A DNA stretch of 61,966 bases, the filler included, from Globobulimina sp. (Eukaryota): NCBI GenBank assembly GCA_003354225.1. It is 18 parts of 18 records of this genome, joined end to end, with 100 filler letters (N's around TTAATTAATTAA, not from the genome) between each part and the next. Parts side by side here need not be neighbours in the genome. Positions count along the whole stretch, not along the records: positions 55,178 to 58,522 come from PIVH01003016.1; 17 more parts are not named here. One strand, given 5' to 3'. Within the stretch, counting starts at the first letter, position 1, and each line of letters starts with the position of its first letter. The translations under genes were made by a program, and so were the position numbers. Shown here piece after piece: positions 3,353-61,692 of the stretch. The notes under the pieces were generated by a model. That model worked only from the letters and a program-made list of their open reading frames with translations, was not told where the DNA came from and did not search any database.

Positions 3353-3452
3353 NNNNNNNNNNNNNNNNNNNNNNNNNNNNNNNNNNNNNNNNNNNNTTAA
3401 TTAATTAANNNNNNNNNNNNNNNNNNNNNNNNNNNNNNNNNNNNNNNNNNNN
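3353..3452. other. Artificial contig linker N44-TTAATTAATTAA-N44 (first of 17)
   Basis: Identical 100-nt linkers start at 3353, 6805, 10257, 13709, 17160, 20611, 24059, 27507, 30955, 34402, 37849, 41295, 44741, 48187, 51633, 55078 and 58523. TTAATTAATTAA gives stops in all six frames, and contig lengths never increase along the window. Confidence 0.99.
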
Positions 3453-35827: not shown

Positions 35828-37204
35828 TTACAATTTCGACATGTACAATAATGCTTTACTTTGTTCTTTTGGCTTCTGAATAAATTCTATAAACGATGGT
35901 GTTCCGGTTTGAATGGATTGTATAAATTGCAATGCACCATTTTTGTTATGATTAATTCTAAAAATTGATATATTATCAAACGGAGCACCTTCTTGATTTG
36001 CAACGATTAAATAATTATTTGTTGGATCAATATTAAAATGCCTTGGTACTTTTCCACCACATTGAAAAAAAGCAGCACCAATATTTTCATTCAATATTCC
36101 ACTTTTTTTATCAATAACAAACCGCACAATGCTATCATCTCCGCGATTTGCACAATACACAAATGTTCCTGTTTTATCACACATTATATGGGAGGTTGTA
36201 TATATTGAACCCGCGTCATTCTGTAATTAAAATATTAAATATTATATTATAATGCAATTATAAAATACGCACATCATATAAATTATTACTACCTTGACAT
36301 TATCAGGCAATGTTGATACTGTTTGAACAACATTCAATAATTTATTTGTTTTATAATCAAAGCGTACCACAGATATCGCTGAACCCATTTCTTGCGATAT
36401 ATATAATACCCCATTAATCACCGGATTATACGCCATATGTCGCGGACCATCGCCACCTCGAAATTTTAATGATGATATTACTTCCAAACTACCATCATTT
36501 TTATCCATCTTATAATGATAAATACTGTCTCGTCCTATTAAAAAATCAACAAAATATGATATTAAACAGATAGTTGCAATGTATTTTGCTCGTATTTCAA
36601 AGTAAAATGCATTGCAATTTGCTATCATATTTTGTCAGCAAAGTGGACCTAAATCATTGGTATAAAATTGTAAAGGATCAGCTAAATTTTTACAAGGCAC
36701 AACACAATGAATGTGTGCCACTGTTTGCCGCGATGGAATCACATGACTTCCTGGCTCAGTGATAATATGTTTAGCGAATGGCACCAAATGATTCCATTTT
36801 CCATCAATTTTATAAACCACAATTGATGATTTTGCAGTGGCTCCGTAATTTGCAATGTAAATATAATTTTGTCCCCAATCTGAAATGGCTAAACATGGAT
36901 CAATCCCAAATGATTTTTGCGTAAATTGTTGAGTAACTTTAAAGTTGTTATTGGAATCAAATCGAATGCCCAGGCCCGTTAAACCAGATTGATTGTCAAA
37001 TTCATTACAGATATAAATATAATTTGCTTTATTATTGATATAAAACGCACTTGGGTTCACACCACAGACTGATTCACCAATACTTGTCATATATTTAGCA
37101 GTGCCATCCAGAGCATCAAATTTATATAAAGACATTCCTTTTCCTAATCCCGTGGCATGAGCCATCTTGCGAGTATAGCAACCGACCATTATATATGTAT
37201 CCAT
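35828..37204 (-). CDS. 6-phosphogluconolactonase-like 7-bladed beta-propeller (Pgl/YbhE family) with C-terminal SKL
   Basis: VGCYT, NPSA, ANYG, RQTVAHIH, DLG, GDGPRHM, NRGDDSI, PRHFNIDP, VANQ. Introns 36535-36648 and 36221-36292. Ends MSKL*. Confidence 0.85.
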
Positions 37205-37353
37205 GACCAATATATACTAAGTAAAGTTTTTAAGCAATTTTCTTCAACTTTCATCAACACTTACTTCACTTTCCAATCCTTTCTTTTGTAGTGATCGTTA
37301 GTCATCGTCTACCCTCAAATCCAGCAACGTTTTCACTGATCGAAAACACAAAC

Positions 37354-44740: not shown

Positions 44741-44840
44741 NNNNNNNNNNNNNNNNNNNNNNNNNNNNNNNNNNNNNNNNNNNNTTAATTAATTAANNNN
44801 NNNNNNNNNNNNNNNNNNNNNNNNNNNNNNNNNNNNNNNN

Positions 44841-47800
44841 GGATTTAAAGAAGGCATTCACCGCATTCACGATATGTTTATCGATCTCATTGGTAGCTTT
44901 CGAATGCGCTCCGATAGGAATCATATCCACTTCGTCCACGTCTTCCTTCTCCTCGCTTAGGATCAACATATTGTTGGTTTTGGACTTATTCTTATTCAAA
45001 TCTTGCTTTTTTTTCTCAATTTGCTGTTTGAAATTGATCGCTTCGTAATGCATTAAGGCCAAATCGTGCCAGCCCCAAAAACTGCTGTTGTTTAATTGCG
45101 TCGCTTTCTCGAAGCAATCGATGCTCGTCGCTATAGACTTGTTGTTATGAGCGGAAACGTCCTGGATCCACATTCCTAATTTGATGTAAGATGCGCATTT
45201 TATATCACCAAACACCGCCGTATCCGTCAGGATATTCTTGATAATATACTTCAAACAGTCAATGGCTTCGCTTTGTAGCCCGGCAGCCCAGCAATGTTTG
45301 GCGATGCTGATATAAATCCGCGCATTGTCTGCATTCAACGACAACCGCGTATCGAATATCTCATTGAAATTACCACAGCGTATCTTATGCAACAACTGCT
45401 GCGGATAAGTGCCCGCGGGCAACATCAATTTGCTCAGTACGTCCAAAGACAGCGTCAAACGTTGGTTTTTGCGGCATAGCGAACTGAATTTCAAATACGT
45501 GTCAATGTCCTGTCGCGGCTTACGAATCAATGAGCGAACCTGCAATATCTCCTGCCATACATCCACAGAATATTGACAACCACGCAAGCGGCGGTCCCAC
45601 ATATCGTACAACAGCCGCTCCTGCTCATAGTCCACTTGTCCGTCATTCTCGCGCTGCTGCTGCTTAATAGTCAGTATCTCCTCCAGCTCCACCAACTGCT
45701 GTGCGCGCACACATAATTTGTAGGCGCGATTGTAACTTTCGCCCACCAGCGCAGTCAACTCAGTGTCCAGAGTCTCGCGGGTCTTATCGATGAATTCCAG
45801 CGACCGCTCTTTATTCCCGTCATGTACGTACAAAATAGCGCGGTAAAAGCAGCCGTCGTCGTCGTTTTCGTCGATCTTATTTACAAAATTCTGCATATCC
45901 TTCCATTTCTCCAAATGCCACGAGGCCACCGCCCCTAAGGAAGCGATCATTTGTTTGCGATCAAAGTCGTACACATTGGATTTGTTGTCATCATCCATGG
46001 ATTTGTTGTCATCTTCGTGACTAATAATCTCGTTCTTCCACGCATGCTTCGCTAACCTGTGCAGTCTCTGCCAGTTCCCCAAGGCTGCGAGACACCGCAT
46101 ACGGCCCAATTTGAGCGAAATGTTCTGCGGTTCTTCCAATTGTGAGCGTTCGTACGCATCCAAGGCATCTTGCCATTTATTCAATTTCTCGTACCATTGA
46201 GCGTTGATTTCCACGTTTTGCCGTTGCCGCGCAAACACCACAATGCCTTCCGCAGCTTCTTGTTGCTGCAATCTATTATAGATAGTCATCAACGGAGCAA
46301 TGGTTTTCTTCGCATCCAACCGGAACTCCTTTTCTTTATAATACAGCGCTTTGGCGTAGGAGTGCGATATTTCAGCCACAGCGCCGAGATTCTGCTCAAT
46401 GACTGGCAGAGCCTCGCCCTGTCGGTCCATGAATTCCGTCAAGTTCAACAGCGTCAATAACACTTCATTTGGCACTGAGCCCGGATTGCGCAGAGCGCCA
46501 TGGAATGCGGTCGACGTTGACCGAATTAACTCATCCTATGACAGAAGCAATATATAACATGAAATAAAATAAATAGCAGTATATACAGAACCTGTAGAAA
46601 ATCCTCCAACTCGCTCCAACACGACAAAAACCCACCGCTGAACAACTGCGCTGATAAAGGATAGTGTTTCTGTGCTAAGGGCGCACAGAGCCGCAGCGCC
46701 GCATTAGGCGATTGCTTTAACAGCTCCACTTGCAACGACTTCAACCACTCGATCCAGTCATCTTTGGTGTACGCCCTTTCTGGGTCCCACCGCTGTACCA
46801 CCCGGCCCAAGGCGCCCGGTTGCAATGAGACGCGTTCATTCGTGCCAATGTCAGCAATGTTTAATTTCAAGTCATCGTCATACGAGTTATAGTTGTAATA
46901 ACTATCTCTGTCCTCGTCGATACTGACTTGTGTGCCATGGCTGCCATTCACTTGTGTCACATCTGCAGAGGACCTGACACCGCGCATAGAGGACAAATGT
47001 AGCAATCCGCGGGCAAATCCCATGCCGGTGGAGGAATTGGTACTGGTATGCTGTTGCGATTGTTGCTGCGCGGTGCGGCTGTTGCGATATTCCTGGTCCA
47101 TGGAATGGATGATGTAATCGATGCGCATGTCGTTGCGAATTAATTTGTCTACCAAGTTTTTATACGCTTCGTTGGTGAAACGGTGCTTTTTGAGTATCTT
47201 ATCAATGGTTGGGATGAATATGGCGTAGTCGCTGCCCATTTGTACTAACAATGCACACAGAGCCAACGAAGCCTGGTTCCGTAGCTCCTCGTCTTGCTCG
47301 TCGATAATACGGATTAATGGATGGATCACTGTTTGTTTTTAGTTATGAAATTGCTGCAGTTTGGGAGAGTAGCAACAGCGACGTACCTCGAGATGAATAG
47401 GCAGAGAAATTGACACTGCGACATAAATGTGTGATGGATTTAATACACTCACTTCGAACACGCACATTTAAGTCTTGCTGTTCGCATAACTTCATCAATG
47501 GCGGAATCACTAAAAATAAGTGATCCTCTAAATTAGAACCAAATGTTTGCAAAACGTGCAACACCTTCAATGTAGACTTCCTTTTATCCGATTTGTCCGT
47601 ATGCAGCACATTCAACAGCAATGGAATTAAGTCGGTGAGATACACTTTGAATTCGTCGCCCAACGCATACGATATGCAACGTATCAATTTCAGCAATTCA
47701 TCTTCGAATAACGTATAATAATTATTTGTATTCCAGTAAAAATGAATCAGCTCAAATATCCCATCCAAATATGGTTTTATATTATTCTTTGCGATGGAAA

Positions 47801-48186
47801 TCAGTGAACTTAAATGTTGAATAAACTGTTTGCGCAAAGAATCTTCCTTCGTTCGGTTCATATTGGATAGCAAACTCGGCACAATTAACGGTAAGAACTT
47901 CTTCAAATTATTGCTCTGCAAACGATATAAAATACTGATAATCACTCGCAACACCTCCGAATGGTACTGAGTCAAACCAGAATCGTCCAACATTAACACC
48001 AACGCTGTCAGCGCAATGGACGGATAATACGCATCCTTATCGTTCTGCGCATAAATGGCATGCTGTAATAACCTATTTTTCATGGTTTAACGTTGAAGTA
48101 TATGTTGTATAAAATAAATAAAGTTGGCACAAATCACACCTATTGGAGGAAGAATTACTTTTATTCGAATTGGATTTATTAATTTC
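44841..48186 (-). CDS. TOR: Target of rapamycin kinase, internal HEAT plus FAT fragment
   Basis: LEDHLFLVIPP, TKDDWIEW, SPNAALR, YAKALYYKE, WYEKLNKW, LVGESYNRAY. Introns 48073-48139, 47329-47386 and 46536-46591. Confidence 0.95.
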
Positions 48187-55077: not shown

Positions 55078-55879
55078 NNNNNNNNNNNNNNNNNNNNNNN
55101 NNNNNNNNNNNNNNNNNNNNNTTAATTAATTAANNNNNNNNNNNNNNNNNNNNNNNNNNNNNNNNNNNNNNNNNNNNCATTAATTCTGGAATATTATCGC
55201 ATTTTTCATTGATTGTACGTTTGATGATATTTGGATGATTTCCAAAATTTCGGATTATAACTCTCGACGGATACTTTAACACTGTGTTTTCCATCAATTT
55301 CTGATGGATTTGATTAAATAATTGCAGCAATTTTTCATTTTCAAAATTTGTACAACTTTGAATGATACTCAAAAATGTTCTGGTTTGTTGATTTGTGGTT
55401 GTTTTCCAGATTCTTGTTTTATCGTTTTCGTACAACTGCTTTGCAATCCAAAATCCATCGCATGCATCGCTTTCAAACAATAATTGGCATTTTTGTGCAG
55501 CAGAAATATAAACATTAAAATCTGATGTCATCGACCATGCTAAAATAGAGATTAAATCGGATTGATCTTTGGCTTCACCAATAGTATCTATGTATATTCA
55601 GTCATATCTGATCAAATATTATCATTTCGGACATTTTGTATCTGACTTATTAGTTCATTTGAAGATAGAGCAAATAATCCAAAGAATGTCAATATTGTCA
55701 TGATGATATTGATATGGTAAGCCCAGAGTTTTCTAGATTTTTAAGCCCTTAATATCACCATCAATGTTTTCTAGATTTTTCGCAAAATTAGCAAAAAAAC
55801 ACAGGCTTTGACAAAATGAACAACATTTTGCTCTCGGTAAGGTCACGGAACGTGTTACGTATTCAAAGGAAACGACTAT

Positions 55880-56933
55880 TTACGGTCTTTCATTTTGATT
55901 GCTGTGTGCAACCATTCCCTGCAATGATTTATCCGCTATGCTATCATGTTTCAATTGATCATTGTGTATATTTTGAACATTATCTGGTGCAATATCCACG
56001 ATGTCCTCATCCACTCCTTCAATAAACTCATTATCGCAGCCACAAAACTCAGTCGGTTTCCATATTTCAAACAAATTATCCAAATCACAATCCATTGTCA
56101 AGGCTTTTGGATGGACGCTCCGTGTAACATCATTATGAAAGTCGCATAACCATTGACTATATTCCTTATTATTTGCAATCATTGGCGGTTTTTTTTTTAA
56201 TTTTTGTTTCATATGTTTGGCACATTCGCCACACGGATATAATCTGCTAAATGATTCCCAAAATTGCGACAAGTCTTTCTTCCTTTGTTCGGTTGGTTGC
56301 TCTGAATATGTCACACTTTGTGTATGCAAAAATAGCCATGATATGTGACCTAAATCTTGTCGACTTAACGGGGGCCCTTTTGCAGTAAAGTTGCAGTGCG
56401 TGCTATGAGTGCGAGGATATGCGTAAATAGACCGTACCTGCAATTATATGAACATCGGGATAGTTATCATTGACTTTTTGATGCAGATCGTATAACGTAG
56501 GATGTGTAGAGGTTATTGGTGAGGATAGGAATGAAAGTGTGGAGATTTGATGGTAATAATAGTGGCCATTTAATGTTTCAATGTATAAAAATATTGACGT
56601 GAAAAATAACATTAATAGGATGATTAAACAGGGGATGGAGTTAAACTGTATCGAAACGCGTGTAATCCATAGATATTCTATACATTTTTTGATGCGTTTT
56701 GATAATGTTTTCTGTGCTTCAGGGCTACGACTATTATATTTGCAAAATATATTGTTGAGATATACATGTTACCCAAGAAAAGAAGACAAGGAAGCTGCAG
56801 ACGAGGGAGGTGTTAAATACGTTGAGGATGATTTTATATGCCGCTTTGGAATATGGAAATGGATTGAAAAGCATGATAATCCACATCTTACTGTTTCGAT
56901 TGGCGTTGCATTGTTCACGTTGGTGTAAAACAT
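55880..56933 (-). CDS. Erv-family FAD-dependent sulfhydryl oxidase, Erv2-like (TM anchor, CGC motif)
   Basis: LGHISWLFLHT, LYPCGECAKH, WLCDFHNDV, FCGCD. Introns 56731-56772 and 56377-56437. Confidence 0.85.
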
Positions 56934-56969
56934 GGTGACGTGAGTGTTTATTGCAAAACTTTTACTCAT

Positions 56970-58451
56970 TTAGTTACACAACAAACATACACCATTGACA
57001 AATGTATGGATCCCTCGGGGATCGACACATTCAATGCTTTGCTCGTTATAAACACGAGATGTCTCACAAAAGAATTTATGGCAATCATTACACATTCTCA
57101 TTGCTACAGATATTCGAATATCCTGATTACAGTTCACATCATTTGCAAGTAAAATAGCTAACGCTTTCTTTTCTGAATGACTTTTCAATAAATTTTTCCT
57201 TTTCCGATTATTTTGCAATTCTGGAACTATGGAAACATCCATTTTGTAATCAATTTCTTTCATCAATGTAACCACTTTATGCATTGCCTTAAACTCACAG
57301 TTTTTAATATGTCCACTTTTTATCTCATATTTTTTACCATTAATCCAAAATGTTGCAGCAACATTGGTTTTCAATTTTTTTTTATACTCCAAAAGATTCC
57401 AAATCTTATCCACATTCTCTTTATCTCCGCATTTAATCCCAACGCGATAAAATGCCATTAATTTTTCTATATTTACCTCATTTTCCAAATCAAAATTTTC
57501 TGTAATTATTTGCAAAATATTTGATATTTTTTCACTTCGAATTTCTTTCGACGACAACACACTCAATGCATCAATGTCATGTTTGTTATCATTATATTCC
57601 TCCATATATACATTATAAAACTCCCACATTTTGTCCAATTCTCCGATATTTCCATAGCCAGTCAATATTTGACGCAAACCAATTTCGGGCAAAGCTTGTG
57701 TATACTCCAAATTACATAATAATTCACGGGCTTTCTGCTGACATTTTGCACATTGACTCCGTGAAAATGCCAAAACAGCCAAACAATAACAATCTAAATC
57801 TGGTTCAATTCCAGCTTTATGCACAATGGCATCCCATACATTGAGTAACAACTCATTGTTTAAATGATAATGTCGCGATTTGTCAATGCAAACAAGAAAC
57901 GACTGCAACACAAATAAATCAAATAAGTTATAGTTTGGGTGCGGATTTTGAAGCTTTTGTGATATATCATTCCATATTAAATTGACAGATTCTGTCTGCT
58001 CGCAATTGATCAAACCTTGCAGTAAAGTGGCTAAAATGTAATTATTTAATTCAATGTTGAGATTGGTCATTATTTGATATTGATGTATCATATTTTTCGC
58101 ATCTTTTAATTCTCCGTAAAAGTAAATGATTGACCACCAATCACGTTCGCTGAATTTATGGTAATTATGATTGTATTTTAATTGGTCGATTAATTGATAA
58201 ATTATTTGTTTGTGTTTTGCATTCTTTATTATGATAGTTATGGCTCGAAAATAGGAATTTATGGAAGGTGAAACATTGTGTTGATCCACAAATGTGTGCC
58301 ATATTTTAAGTGCCATATTTGATGCCTTGTTGTTGTGATTGATTTGTTTACATTGATTAAGCAATGCAGTTAATGTGTTGTCGGATATTTTCCTGGGTTC
58401 TGATAGTTGAATTGCTAAATGTTTGGATAAATGCCTCACAGTGTACGCCAT
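56970..58451 (-). CDS. PPR protein with C-terminal DYW-type cytidine deaminase domain
   Basis: About 8 degenerate PPR-like helical repeats; HSEKKALA, MRMCNDCHKF, DPRGIHTFVNGVC. Confidence 0.88.
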   Translation of the reverse strand: MAYTVRHLSKHLAIQLSEPRKISDNTLTALLNQCKQINHNNKASNMALKIWHTFVDQHNVSPSINSYFRAITIIIKNAKHKQIIYQLIDQLKYNHNYHKFSERDWWSIIYFYGELKDAKNMIHQYQIMTNLNIELNNYILATLLQGLINCEQTESVNLIWNDISQKLQNPHPNYNLFDLFVLQSFLVCIDKSRHYHLNNELLLNVWDAIVHKAGIEPDLDCYCLAVLAFSRSQCAKCQQKARELLCNLEYTQALPEIGLRQILTGYGNIGELDKMWEFYNVYMEEYNDNKHDIDALSVLSSKEIRSEKISNILQIITENFDLENEVNIEKLMAFYRVGIKCGDKENVDKIWNLLEYKKKLKTNVAATFWINGKKYEIKSGHIKNCEFKAMHKVVTLMKEIDYKMDVSIVPELQNNRKRKNLLKSHSEKKALAILLANDVNCNQDIRISVAMRMCNDCHKFFCETSRVYNEQSIECVDPRGIHTFVNGVCLLCN

Positions 58452-58622
58452 GTTGGACAGTGTTTGAACTTTCCAGAAATTGTTTTTTTTAATGTTTTTT
58501 CATATAAAGATTTTGTGTTGAANNNNNNNNNNNNNNNNNNNNNNNNNNNNNNNNNNNNNNNNNNNNTTAATTAATTAANNNNNNNNNNNNNNNNNNNNNN
58601 NNNNNNNNNNNNNNNNNNNNNN

Positions 58623-61600
58623 ACGATTAACGCCAATTAATTTTGGTAATATTCATATCAAACAATCAAAAAATAAAAAATTTATAATTTATAATAAATC
58701 AAATAAATATCCGTTTGAATTTAATTGGAGGTTTTTTTGGCCAAAGGTTGGTCGATCGAGACCTAACACATCCAAACCAGCGACTGCACGATCAATGAAA
58801 TCAAATTCAAAACATAATGATAATAAAAAAGCGTTATCAACGCATCGATCCATAGCGAGTACGAACTCAAACACAAAAGAGAGGAAAGTAAGAAATCACG
58901 CTCAATTATTACGACAATGTTTAACTATCACACCAGGACAAGGTACAATTGCGCCGCAACATGAAATTGAATGTGAATTAACATTTAAATCATTGTCACA
59001 AATCACAATCGATCAAATGAAATTATTATGTTTAGAAATCGGCAAAAACAAAACCAAAAATGGATACAATTATCCCTTTTCTATATCTGCAAAAGCACGC
59101 AAACCACGAATAGAATTTATACCCGGCTCATTCGTGAATTTTGGTGATTGTTTTTTATATCATGCAAATAGCAAACCATTAACCTCAACTTTTACAATCA
59201 AAAATAAAGAGATCATCGGCAGCATAACTATCGATGTAATGTTTGAGAATCAGCCACATTTAGAAGTGTCGCCGACTGGTTCCATTGTGGTTGAGTCGCA
59301 AAAACAAATTGAAATTGAAGTAACTTTCAGACCGAGGCAAACAAAACTTTATTCCGAGAAAATCTTGTTAGACATAAATGGTTTGTTTACCTGCGAAGTT
59401 GTGGTGAAAGGCAAAGGTATCGATTTAAAAGTAGACGTCGAGGATGACTCAACTATGCGGAACATATCATTTGGAAACTTGCGGGTTGGCCTAAAACGAA
59501 CCAAAAAATTATCCTTAATTAACAAATCAAAGAAAACCACAGAATGCTCCATCTCATTGGACCACGTTCTACAAACAAAATACATTTCTGTCGACCCCCA
59601 GCCATTAGAAAAGTTCCGGTTGCGCAAAAATGAAAAAAAATATATTTCACTCACCTTTCATCCGCCAATTAGATTGGCGCCGTTTGAGGGTAACTTATTA
59701 GTGAATGCTGAGGGACAAAGTTGCATTTTATCGCGAATCCGAGGCGGCTGTCATGGCATTGGCGCCAAGTTAGACAGTGATACACTGTCATTTGGCACTG
59801 TGGTGTCTGGATCGAGCAAGAAAATGTCGATTAAGTTATGCAACACCGGCGATGTTGGCGTCAAATTCCGATGGGACACCAAATTAATTAAACCACATTT
59901 CAGTTTGTTGCCGGTGATGGGCTATATTGAGGAGAATGGCTACGTATTGATTTCAATCCTATTTCGACCGAAATCGGTCAAACAAAATATTCGCATTAAC
60001 CGGGTTCCGTGTTACATTTAAGGCGATACTTCCATACAATACTTGTCCTTAATTGGTTCATGTATGGACCAACCGACCGGCGAAACGTATGAAATTAAGA
60101 TGAATGCGGCAGTTCGATCCATATCGCGGCACGAAATCAGTATCAATATCTTGAACAATACGAATGAAGATTGGGAGCTGCACCCCGTGATACAAAATGA
60201 TTACTGGACGGGGCAGAATAAAGTACACATTGCGAAGCATACGGATAGTTTTAAATATGTCATCATGTATCGACCGCTGTTGATGACCACCGACGCAAAT
60301 AAATATCATCGCGGATCCATATTCTTCCCGTTACCGAATGGTACGGCAATATTATACAATTTGGTTGGCACTGCGTCGTCGCCAGATATTGAAAATGAAC
60401 TTGATATCACAACCGCGGCGAAGCAAAATAAAACCATTACATTGTCAGTCAAGAATTGGTTGAGTCGGCGGCAAAGATTTCATGTTGAAATTATCAAAGA
60501 AAAGGATATGGAGAGTGTCTTTATTAATGGTGTGGAGTGGATAGATATTCCTGGATTACATAATAGAAATTATAGATTGGTTTTTTATTCGTTGAAACAA
60601 GGTGATATTACCTTTTATATTAAGTTTGTCAATGAGAAAATCAATGAATTCATTCAGTATAAAATCAATGTGAAAGTAAGCCAAGTTACCATTGATTTGC
60701 ATCCATCGGCGTCGGGCTATAATGATCAAATAATATCAATGCAATCCACTGTACGCAACCGATTGGCATATCAGCTGTCAATAAATAATCCGTTATTGAA
60801 ATCGAAAGGAATTATAAATACATTTGAATGTGATAGCAATCACATTTATATTCCAGATTTACCCTTTGATTTACCCTCAGATTCTCAGAAACGTTTAACA
60901 ATTTATTATCGGCCCTTATGTAAAGAGATAAAAAAAGAATCCATTTTGACATTGTTTAGTGACGAATTGGGGGAATATAAATATTTATTAAAATTGACCT
61001 CTACGCCGGTTGGTATTGATAAAATATTAAAATTTAACTCATTTTTGGGTGGTGAGGATTTACAAACTTTTCGATTTGTGCATTTTAAAAATAATAAATC
61101 AAAGCAAAAAGAGACAATATATGATGTTCGAATAACTTCTGAATCCGGATCCGATGAAGAAAAAGAATTAAAAGAATATGATTTTTGTGTCAATCAAAAA
61201 CAATTAAAAGTTATTCATGATAATAACAAAAAAAATAATAGCAATAAGAACGATGATCGAGAGGATGAATCGATTGATGTTCATATCGATATTACGTACA
61301 CTCCCTCAAATATTGGAAATTTGCGAAACTTATTAATTATTTCTTCCTCATCAAACAATTCAACATATCAATGCGCGTTGCATGGTTTTTGTGATCCGCC
61401 TAAACCAAAAGGACCATATCAAATATCTACAAATAATCCAAATCTACAAATTCCATTTCAAAACCCATACAGAGAAAATTGTCAATTTGATTTTAATACC
61501 GATCATAATTGTTTTGTGTTAAAAAAAGAGTCTGAAATCATTAAACCGAAAGCAAAAGCTATGATTCACATACAATTCAAAATTGAAAATAATAAAAAAA

Positions 61601-61692
61601 TGGAAAATAAAAAACAAATTATGGGTAAAGTCATTATAAAATCTAAAAATAAACATGAATGGGTATATTATATCAGAGGCCTGATTCAATAA
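58623..61692 (+). CDS. HYDIN: HYDIN (axonemal central-pair protein) C-terminal ASH-domain region, with an in-frame TAA at 60019-60021
   Basis: NFGDCFLY, INGL, GGCHGI..LSFGTVV, NTGDVGVKFRW, YRPLLMT, GSIFFPLPNG..LYNLVG, VKNWL..QRF, PPKPKGP, WVYYIRG. Confidence 0.9.

Follow-up and report, generated by a model that had tools for sequence, protein, structure and literature searches.

We analysed a window of 61,966 nucleotides from Globobulimina sp. (GenBank assembly GCA_003354225.1), in which 18 parts of 18 records are joined end to end with 100 filler letters between each part and the next; all positions given here count along this whole stretch. One part, PIVH01003016.1 (positions 55,178 to 58,522), carries an open reading frame (ORF) on the minus strand that starts with ATG and encodes a protein of 493 amino acids, named P0001. 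The original prediction described it as an intronless gene for a non-plant pentatricopeptide repeat (PPR) protein with a DYW-type deaminase domain and as a candidate organellar RNA-editing factor. PPR-DYW proteins are the enzymes of C-to-U editing in plant organelles and are being developed as programmable RNA editors. Our results confirm the observation as a whole, as the intact gene, the domain, and the motifs were all found, and they support the interpretation in part. P0001 is a genuine DYW-family deaminase, complete in sequence, to which a degenerate array of PPRs is fused. Because stop codons are common at the GC content of this ORF (0.32), an open frame of 493 codons lies far beyond chance expectation, and its relatives reach an E-value of 2e-163 in sequence searches. 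The features of the gene and of its neighbours are collected in Table 1.

Table 1. Positions of the P0001 gene, its predicted parts, and other genes of the window
Feature	Positions	Strand	Basis or remark
PPR-DYW-like protein P0001, coding sequence, 493 codons and TAA stop	56970..58451	minus	ORF list, translation, relatives, joint-free RNA contigs
Possible mitochondrial presequence, residues 1-20	58392..58451	minus	composition, low pLDDT
Nine helix hairpins, degenerate PPR-like array, residues 21-357	57381..58391	minus	AlphaFold2, VIA-align, homology
DYW-type cytidine deaminase domain, residues 358-493	56973..57380	minus	Pfam, PDB matches, VIA-align
Degenerate PG box and start of the DYW domain, residues 361-378	57318..57371	minus	alignment with classical DYW, model strands
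H425-S426-E427, catalytic zinc His and proton-shuttle Glu (OTP86 H892/E894)	57171..57179	minus	invariant in 7/7, alignment
V449 at the position of OTP86 K915 (autoinhibitory Lys)	57105..57107	minus	alignment
C454-N-D-C457-H458, catalytic zinc Cys pair and structural-zinc His (OTP86 C920, C923, H924)	57078..57092	minus	alignment
C489-L-L-C492-N493, CxLC end replacing CxCxDYW	56973..56987	minus	translation, alignment, VIA-align
Erv1/ALR sulfhydryl-oxidase gene, two tiny introns	55880-56938	minus	directly downstream of the DYW gene
mTOR-type kinase (FAT domain, mTOR_dom, HEAT repeats)	44793-48083	minus	at least three ORFs parted by very short gaps
Lactonase gene, three small exons	35831-37216		
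CFAP65/hydin-like Ig-domain flagellar protein	58795-61692	plus	divergent orientation relative to the DYW gene

The deaminase domain was recognised by sequence and by fold. The Pfam search proposed with the original prediction placed DYW_deaminase (PF14432) at residues 402-489 (46.1 bits, where the cut-off is 24; E 4.2e-12), and the three other Pfam families listed for P0001 stayed far under their cut-offs. Sequence matches in the PDB were OTP86 (7o4e, E 2.3e-6), a synthetic PPR-DYW protein (9kfx, E 4.1e-6), and DYW1 (7w86, E 8.7e-5). An AlphaFold2 model of P0001, built on an alignment of seven family members, had a mean pLDDT of 86.7 and a pTM of 0.80, with pLDDT below 50 only for residues 1-19. 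Superposition of this model with VIA-align matched residues 363-493 to residues 825-958 of OTP86 (7o4f_A; Z 16.0, rmsd 2.6 Å, 123 of 136 residues), and a similar result was obtained with DYW1 (7w86; Z 15.5, rmsd 2.3 Å). The predicted model has the deaminase fold with a gating-domain insertion, as in OTP86.

The catalytic site is intact, as had been read from the motif HSE(K)...CxxC. P0001 carries HSEK at residues 425-428 and CNDCH at residues 454-458, and H425, E427, C454, D456, C457, and H458 are invariant in all seven aligned family members. In OTP86, the catalytic zinc is coordinated by H892, C920, and C923, with E894 acting as the catalytic residue, whereas a structural zinc is held by H924, H947, C954, and C956 (Takenaka et al. 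2021, PMC7611903). The alignment assigns the first four of these functions to H425 (H892), C454 (C920), C457 (C923), and E427 (E894), and places H458, H482, and C489 at the positions of H924, H947, and C954. In P0001, the catalytic zinc would be bound by H425, C454, and C457, with E427 as the proton shuttle, and the structural zinc by H458, H482, C489, and C492.

The two ends of the domain are altered. At its start, the degenerate PG box noted in the original prediction was found as KTNVAATFWING at residues 361-372. Compared with the consensus PGxSWIEVxGxxHxF, P0001 reads K-T-N-V-A-A-T-F-W-I-N-G-K-K-Y-E-I, lacking the P and G and keeping the W, the later G, and an aromatic residue. The model predicts a beta hairpin at the PG-box position (strands 365-370 and 373-378), and N363, F368, and G380 are invariant among the seven family members. 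At its end, P0001 terminates with GVCLLCN instead of CSCxDYW, again as predicted; N493 is the end of the chain and superposes on residue 958 of OTP86, with the Asp, Tyr, and Trp missing. H458, H482, and C489 of the structural zinc site align with their OTP86 counterparts, and C492 is displaced by one residue, which turns CxC into CxxC. In OTP86, W960 stacks on H924 and D958 bonds K928, and the equivalent Trp has been reported as essential in DYW1 and PpPPR65 (PMC7611903).

Upstream of the deaminase, the model predicts nine helix hairpins at residues 24-357 with periods of 38-45 amino acids, of which the last two occupy the position of plant E1 and E2. The original prediction had counted about eight PPR-like repeats. 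No Pfam PPR family (PF01535 or PF13041) was found in P0001 even at E<10. A Foldseek search of the PDB with the model returned the synthetic PPR-DYW/RNA complex 9kfx_A first (E 4.8e-13) and designer PPR proteins next. With VIA-align, the model matched 9kfx_A with Z 23.0 over 434 residues (rmsd 12.7) and the designer PLS-type PPR protein 5iww_D with Z 19.8 and rmsd 4.0 over 297 of 300 residues (model residues 22-353). Helical repeats generally give middling Z scores, and what counts is the margin over tetratricopeptide repeat (TPR) proteins, which reached Z 11-13, with PPR structures in the top ranks. On the sequence side, residues 1-355 alone matched three relatives collinearly: P0021 (E 1.6e-15, residues 21-351 against 55-367), P0023 (E 9.4e-16), and P0026 (E 2.8e-7), with E-values scaled to a library of 1.84 billion proteins. 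Pfam PPR_2 scores 101, 40.4, and 40.8 bits in these three proteins against a cut-off of 30. Among 29 relatives scanned with Pfam, all contain the DYW domain (PF14432); PPR or PPR_2 reaches its cut-off in 18, falls below it in 6, and is absent from 5. Based on the fold search and the collinear homology to relatives with true PPRs, we identify the repeat region of P0001 as a degenerate PPR array.

We then placed P0001 among its relatives. A word-index search found six proteins at E <= 0.001 among 6444 candidates, the best of them 54% identical; four came from ENA and two from EukProt, and none from NCBI or UniRef. An exhaustive HMMER search returned 194 representatives at E <= 0.001, of which 61 reach <= 1e-10 and 23 reach <= 1e-30. 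Among the best 150 of the 194, the top matches align over nearly the whole of P0001. The tree was started from 153 proteins, namely the query, the best 150 of the 194 representatives, P0003, and P0005. Local phmmer matched 142 of these to the C-terminal 139 residues of the query; the 102 that cover the region from before HxE to the end were kept, and 51 were dropped as partial or unmatched. The resulting quick IQ-TREE analysis (LG+C20+F+G4 PMSF, 145 columns) carries SH-aLRT support only and leaves 57 of 99 inner branches unresolved, and the clade described here is delimited by sequence rows, not by taxa.

Among the 102 domains, the tail is of the classical CxCxxxW class in 41, CxC without DYW in 26, CxLC in 22, another CxxC in 4, and of other kinds in 9. 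The query falls in a clade of 28 rows (SH-aLRT 99) with 22 CxLC tails, 2 other CxxC tails, and 4 others, and this clade is nested in a group of 49 rows (support 89) with CxC tails lacking DYW. A branch with support 97 parts the query's side from 46 classical rows, which hold 39 of the 41 CxCxxxW tails. HxE...CxxC is present in 27 of the 28 clade members. Seventeen members are of fuller length: ten are short, with an N-terminal extension of less than 100 amino acids (P0001 included), and seven are long (681-1139 amino acids, extension above 100), five of the latter with canonical Pfam PPRs above cut-off in the extension. The tree and the motif counts bear out the proposal of a divergent DYW subfamily.

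The same division is seen at the position of the autoinhibitory lysine. In OTP86, K915 is inhibitory through an ion pair with E894, and it is described as "restricted to DYW domains" (PMC7611903). A lysine five residues before the CxxC cysteine is present in 40 of the 46 classical domains and in none of 55 on the query's side of the tree, a count that leaves out one clade row without the motif. The residues found there instead are V (43), L (4), I (2), T (2), and F, S, A, and H (one each). As this lysine is missing, the P0001 clade would not be in the plant-type autoinhibited state, and U-to-C editing is unlikely. Chun et al. (2024, PMC11713852) report that KP6 with alanine in place of the lysine showed strongly increased C-to-U editing and lost U-to-C editing altogether; if the KP6 lysine corresponds to K915, its absence from P0001 argues against a DYW:KP-type U-to-C activity. 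Because both the autoinhibitory lysine and the terminal D-Y-W are missing, regulation in the clade probably differs from that of plant enzymes. Judged by its sequences, the clade departs from the plant paradigm in four respects: the PG box is degenerate, the autoinhibitory lysine is missing, the end is CxxC where plant domains have CxCxDYW, and the repeats are conserved without following the code.

Such changes could also mean that P0001 no longer deaminates. P0001 would then be an RNA-binding or RNA-processing protein, acting in stabilisation, cleavage, or splicing, with the DYW domain as a structural or interaction module. The truncated DYW motif, without D or W, and the degenerate PG box are compatible with this explanation, and the authors of the Acrasis study noted that DYW genes in excess of the editing sites might have other functions (PMC4202320). 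However, 27 of 28 clade members still have all the zinc ligands and the catalytic Glu, the seven aligned members show no variation in these residues, and the DYW region is the best conserved part of the protein (48-64% identity among the seven members, against 30-52% in the repeat region), which argues for a retained catalytic site. We consider the loss of deamination unlikely.

Evidence that the gene is transcribed came from public sequencing runs. Eight runs contain at least part of 55178-58522, none of them recorded as RNA; X1 is the best DNA run, and X6, X7, and X8 are runs with spliced contigs. Over the downstream Erv1 gene, the contigs of X6, X7, and X8 skip 42 nt (56731-56772) and 61 nt (around 56377-56437) with GT..AG ends on the minus strand, and joining the exons yields a continuous ORF of 316 amino acids with its ATG at 56933. 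Because the Erv1 introns are spliced out in their contigs, these three runs contain cDNA. The same runs span the DYW ORF without any joint: X6 covers 57016-58393 almost free of gaps, X7 covers 56960-57320, 57600-57826, and 58161-58431, and X8 covers it in several pieces. This supports the earlier claim that the ORF is intronless. The contigs are 90-99% like the window, so their source is a relative or another allele. Taken from a close relative, and giving neither expression levels nor transcript ends, these contigs are only a hint that the P0001 gene is likely transcribed. The stretches 55178-55849 (in X6 and X7) and 58432-58522 have no RNA-contig cover and were not used as evidence.

The Erv1 ATG lies 36 nt past the stop codon of the DYW gene, with an AATAAA in between. 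In this interval the contigs of X1 (DNA) and of the RNA run X6 diverge from the window at 56938 (56938-56947) with identical unlike letters. A spliced leader at 56938 was rejected as an explanation, as the DNA run has the same divergent letters and the difference is a genomic variant, apparently from a second haplotype or a second copy of the region upstream of Erv1. Linkage of the DYW gene to Erv1 is not kept at JACLAD010014141.1, the sole relative locus with downstream DNA: its positions 3-281 hold the final 92 codons of a relative of the CxLC type, which shares 58% identity with residues 402-493, and the genes downstream differ from those in the window.

By tblastn, the gene of P0001 is the only DYW gene in the window. 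Short contigs of X1 and X8 match the window only at 57069-57103 (35 nt, coding for MRMCxDCHxFF) and then diverge, and their loose ends, read by hand on the minus strand, are a different DYW-like coding sequence. This hand reading weakly suggests that paralogous DYW genes are present in the same samples.

Paralogues would be expected if each gene served its own site, as in a plant-style, self-sufficient factor that recognises a unique RNA sequence through the PPR code of its own repeats and whose deaminase acts a few nucleotides downstream, with one protein per site. The match of architecture and fold to the PPR-DYW/RNA complex 9kfx_A fits such a factor as well. We read the code positions of P0001 in a register set by hand from the model helices, so their assignment is an inference. 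In this register, the last positions of the repeats would be S, S, N, D, D, P, D, and N, mostly D/N/S as in code-reading PPRs, and position 5 of R1-R8 would be T, F, W, A, Q, C, R, and S, with R1 and R8 carrying a residue of the T/N/S kind. The other six position-5 residues (F, W, A, Q, C, R) are non-canonical, yet they are largely kept among members whose repeats are only 30-52% identical (R3 W in 5/7, R5 Q in 6/7, R6 C in 7/7, R7 R in 5/7). If the members served different targets, diversification would be expected instead of this conservation. No Pfam PPR family is matched by P0001, which also lacks the canonical PPR tracts of the longer clade members. A plant-style programmable, code-reading role for the array is doubtful, and we regard a self-sufficient factor of this kind as improbable, to much the same degree as a DYW domain without deaminase activity.

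The N-terminus bears on where the protein would act. The first 20 residues of P0001 contain three K/R, two H, and one D/E. The basic, acid-poor composition noted in the original prediction is thus compatible with a mitochondrial presequence, although its character is weak. Several relatives have 35-50 additional N-terminal residues, and P0003, P0004, and P0006 have longer N-termini that are basic and hydroxyl-rich. If P0001 were instead an active deaminase with a site of action outside mitochondria, or with a different substrate such as cytosolic or nuclear RNA, tRNA, or DNA, this would agree with the short N-terminus of P0001 and with the missing autoinhibitory lysine, which implies regulation unlike that of plant organellar enzymes. 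The longer N-termini of the three relatives speak against it, as do the PPR-like fold matches, which are mostly organellar RNA-binding proteins, and the PPR-DYW proteins characterised in the sources at hand, which are all organellar (PMC7611903, preprint 10.64898/2026.09.04.749523). We consider a site of action outside mitochondria, or another substrate, very unlikely.

To place the gene in its host, we turned to the rest of the window, which is gene-dense, AT-rich (GC 0.354), and eukaryotic nuclear in character. Besides the DYW gene it contains genes for mTOR, ESF1, Atg3, an ammonium transporter (Amt), a TRAF-type zinc-finger protein, a TSP1-domain protein, a lactonase, Erv1/ALR, and a CFAP65/hydin-like protein. 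The best matches of the Amt ORF are EukProt proteins (70% and 68% identity), and its first named match is from MMETSP1384 Ammonia (42%; taxid 29189, Foraminifera), with an MMETSP1385 entry also present. For ESF1, the best named match is Reticulomyxa filosa RFI_26963 (37%, E 8.9e-72), followed by Phytophthora (28%, E 6.9e-19). The Amt neighbours in the protein atlas were weak and of mixed taxa (0.80-0.82), and the PDB matches of the TOR FAT-domain ORF (yeast TOR2, 242 bits; human mTOR, 228 bits) were equally uninformative on lineage. Rfam and tRNA scans of the window found nothing. Going by the named matches of these two genes, Amt and ESF1, the host is probably a rhizarian, most likely a foraminifer or a close relative of that group.

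The ESM Atlas feature search ranked two Rotifera PPR-DYW clusters first for P0001 (0.96 and 0.95), followed by Streptophyta clusters. A ranking of this kind could point to a contaminant, or to a very recent transfer from a plant, an alga, or a bdelloid rotifer. We find this highly improbable. None of the six word-index matches is from NCBI or UniRef, the databases that contain the rotifer and plant proteomes, and the tree splits P0001 from the 46 classical CxCxxxW domains (SH-aLRT 97). Within the window, the best named matches of Amt and ESF1 are to Ammonia sp. and Reticulomyxa filosa, the GC3 of the DYW gene (0.31) fits the window range (0.21-0.60), and the gene lies directly upstream of a spliced, host-type Erv1. 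A rotifer host was rejected on the same matches, the six word-index relatives being from ENA and EukProt and the best named matches of Amt and ESF1 foraminiferal. Naegleria DYW proteins have likewise been reported to group with rotifer ones (PMC4202320). The non-plant origin claimed for the gene is borne out by the foraminiferal matches of its neighbours, the tiny introns, and the GC3 value.

P0001 resembles several known systems in part. With land-plant PLS-class PPR-E1-E2-DYW proteins (OTP86, 7o4e/7o4f; 9kfx) it shares the order of parts, namely repeats, two E-like hairpins, a PG-box hairpin, and the deaminase, and with OTP86 the HxE...CxDCH residues, the two His of the second zinc site, and a fold that can be superposed. 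Unlike the plant factors, it has repeats of 38-45 amino acids without Pfam-detectable PPRs and a PG box without P and G; unlike OTP86, it has V for K915, CxxC for CxC, and a chain that stops at the D958 position without Y and W. In plants, the short DYW proteins DYW1, DYW2, and MEF8 provide the deaminase in trans. P0001 is similar to DYW1 in being a small protein with few or atypical repeats and a complete catalytic site, and by analogy with these short plant proteins it may act in trans. It differs from DYW1 in its larger number of hairpins (about nine) and in the absence of a terminal DYW, the Trp of which is essential in DYW1 (PMC7611903).

Among protist proteins, diplonemid PPRD1, also a PPR-DYW protein with an atypical array, can be compared with P0001 by its description. 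PPRD1 is reported to be single-copy per species and to keep all conserved zinc-binding residues of plant DYW domains, its code positions rarely fit the plant code, and its authors propose partner-dependent specificity (preprint 10.64898/2026.09.04.749523). Unlike PPRD1, P0001 belongs to a clade of several members with short and long forms and has an altered C-terminus. It shares with the proteins of Naegleria, Acrasis, Physarum, bdelloid rotifers, and paradinids that it is encoded by a non-plant nuclear gene with a DYW domain. To our knowledge, non-plant PPR-DYW proteins are almost uncharacterised biochemically. Such families have been described as expanded in particular lineages and as variable in both the PG box and the DYW tripeptide (PMC13386178, PMC4202320, PMC11946409, PMC4758236), and, as far as these accounts go, their PLS or LS repeats are recognisable by TPRpred or Pfam, unlike those of P0001.

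DYW-type PPR proteins outside plants have been reported from Naegleria since 2010 and later from Acrasis, Physarum, Acanthamoeba, Malawimonas, a fungus, and bdelloid rotifers (PMC4202320, PMC4758236). According to a 2026 survey, the 1,666 metazoan DYW domains all belong to bdelloid rotifers; Rhizaria have 31, Discoba 22, Fungi 15, Alveolata 9, Haptista 3, and Amoebozoa 1 (PMC13386178). These numbers, above all the metazoan and rhizarian ones, show that the phrase "only sporadically elsewhere" in the original prediction was an understatement, and the 31 rhizarian domains may include foraminiferal ones. In paradinids (Rhizaria), Yabuki et al. (2025) detected C-to-U and A-to-I editing in the mitochondria alongside PPR-DYW transcripts; by their account, no earlier report of C-to-U editing in Rhizaria existed (PMC11946409). 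Mitochondrial C-to-U editing and PPR-DYW proteins are found together in Naegleria, Acrasis, paradinids, and diplonemids (PMC4202320, PMC11946409, 10.64898/2026.09.04.749523). In the literature searched, we found no account of DYW proteins or C-to-U editing in Foraminifera and no description of a lysine-less DYW clade with a CxLC end. The DYW class is known, but that literature seems to contain no description of the clade-level features or of the host lineage.

We propose that P0001 is the product of a resident nuclear gene of a rhizarian, probably a foraminifer, and that it most likely edits C to U in mitochondria, with targets selected in a non-canonical or partner-aided way, a reading we hold with moderate confidence because of the family precedent and the conserved catalytic site. 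A superhelix of about nine degenerate PPR-type hairpins would hold single-stranded RNA, most likely mitochondrial, and the C-terminal zinc-dependent cytidine deaminase would convert C to U in it. Targets would be one or a few conserved sites, or would be chosen with the aid of a partner, rather than by a plant-style PPR code. Targeting without the code is expected because the non-canonical base-reading residues are conserved and P0001 has no extra canonical PPR tract. The mode of targeting would resemble that of DYW1, DYW2, MEF8, or diplonemid PPRD1.

Several observations weigh against this proposal. In the protein itself, the presequence character is weak, no Pfam PPR family is matched, the repeats measure 38-45 residues instead of about 35, and only two of eight position-5 residues (T and S) are canonical in the hand-set register. 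The missing terminal Trp and Asp and the shifted structural-zinc Cys may mean that activity has been lost or changed. At the level of the gene, RNA-contig depth over the DYW ORF is low (about 3-9, against 85-220 for Erv1), and some genomic DNA is possible among the contigs of the RNA runs. The 11 listed differences between the window and the contigs of the relative within the ORF comprise six non-synonymous and five synonymous changes, which indicates only moderate constraint in the N-terminal stretch that holds them. Editing has not been reported for Foraminifera in the literature searched, and in the available part of the paper on Retaria mitogenomes, a cox1 frameshift in Miliolida is all that is mentioned (PMC10127745). 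Finally, DYW genes are reported to far outnumber the known editing sites in Naegleria and Acrasis, so that a DYW gene does not guarantee an editing role (PMC4202320).

The clade keeps every catalytic residue without the Lys of the "gated zinc shutter" and without the terminal Trp and Asp of the DYW motif, both of which are regarded as important in structural studies of the plant enzymes. If its members are active, neither the Lys nor the terminal Trp and Asp would be needed for deamination, and a naturally uninhibited DYW domain would exist. Our reading of P0001 as a mitochondrial editing factor predicts that foraminiferal mitochondrial transcripts carry C-to-U edits; the mitogenomes have been described from DNA only. 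More broadly and more tentatively, we suggest that Foraminifera and their relatives might run an unreported mitochondrial C-to-U system with a DYW clade of their own that lacks the inhibitory Lys and the DYW end. A repeat-deaminase module of about 430 residues would be used in it either alone or fused to variable canonical PPR tracts that give specificity. This wider proposal is possible rather than probable. If it is true, the un-gated compact deaminase module would be a new type of scaffold for engineered RNA base editors.

Some further features of the window were recorded. The gaps between the ORFs of the mTOR-type kinase are consistent with tiny introns, as in the lactonase gene, and the CFAP65/hydin-like gene indicates that the organism encodes axonemal proteins. 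The window also contains 34 runs of exactly 44 N (1496 N in total), which are paired 12 bases apart at a spacing of about 3450 bases, for example 3353-3396 and 3409-3452, through to 58523-58622. These runs look like masking and not like assembly gaps, and one pair lies within the divergent intergenic region of 340 bp between the DYW gene and the CFAP65-like gene.

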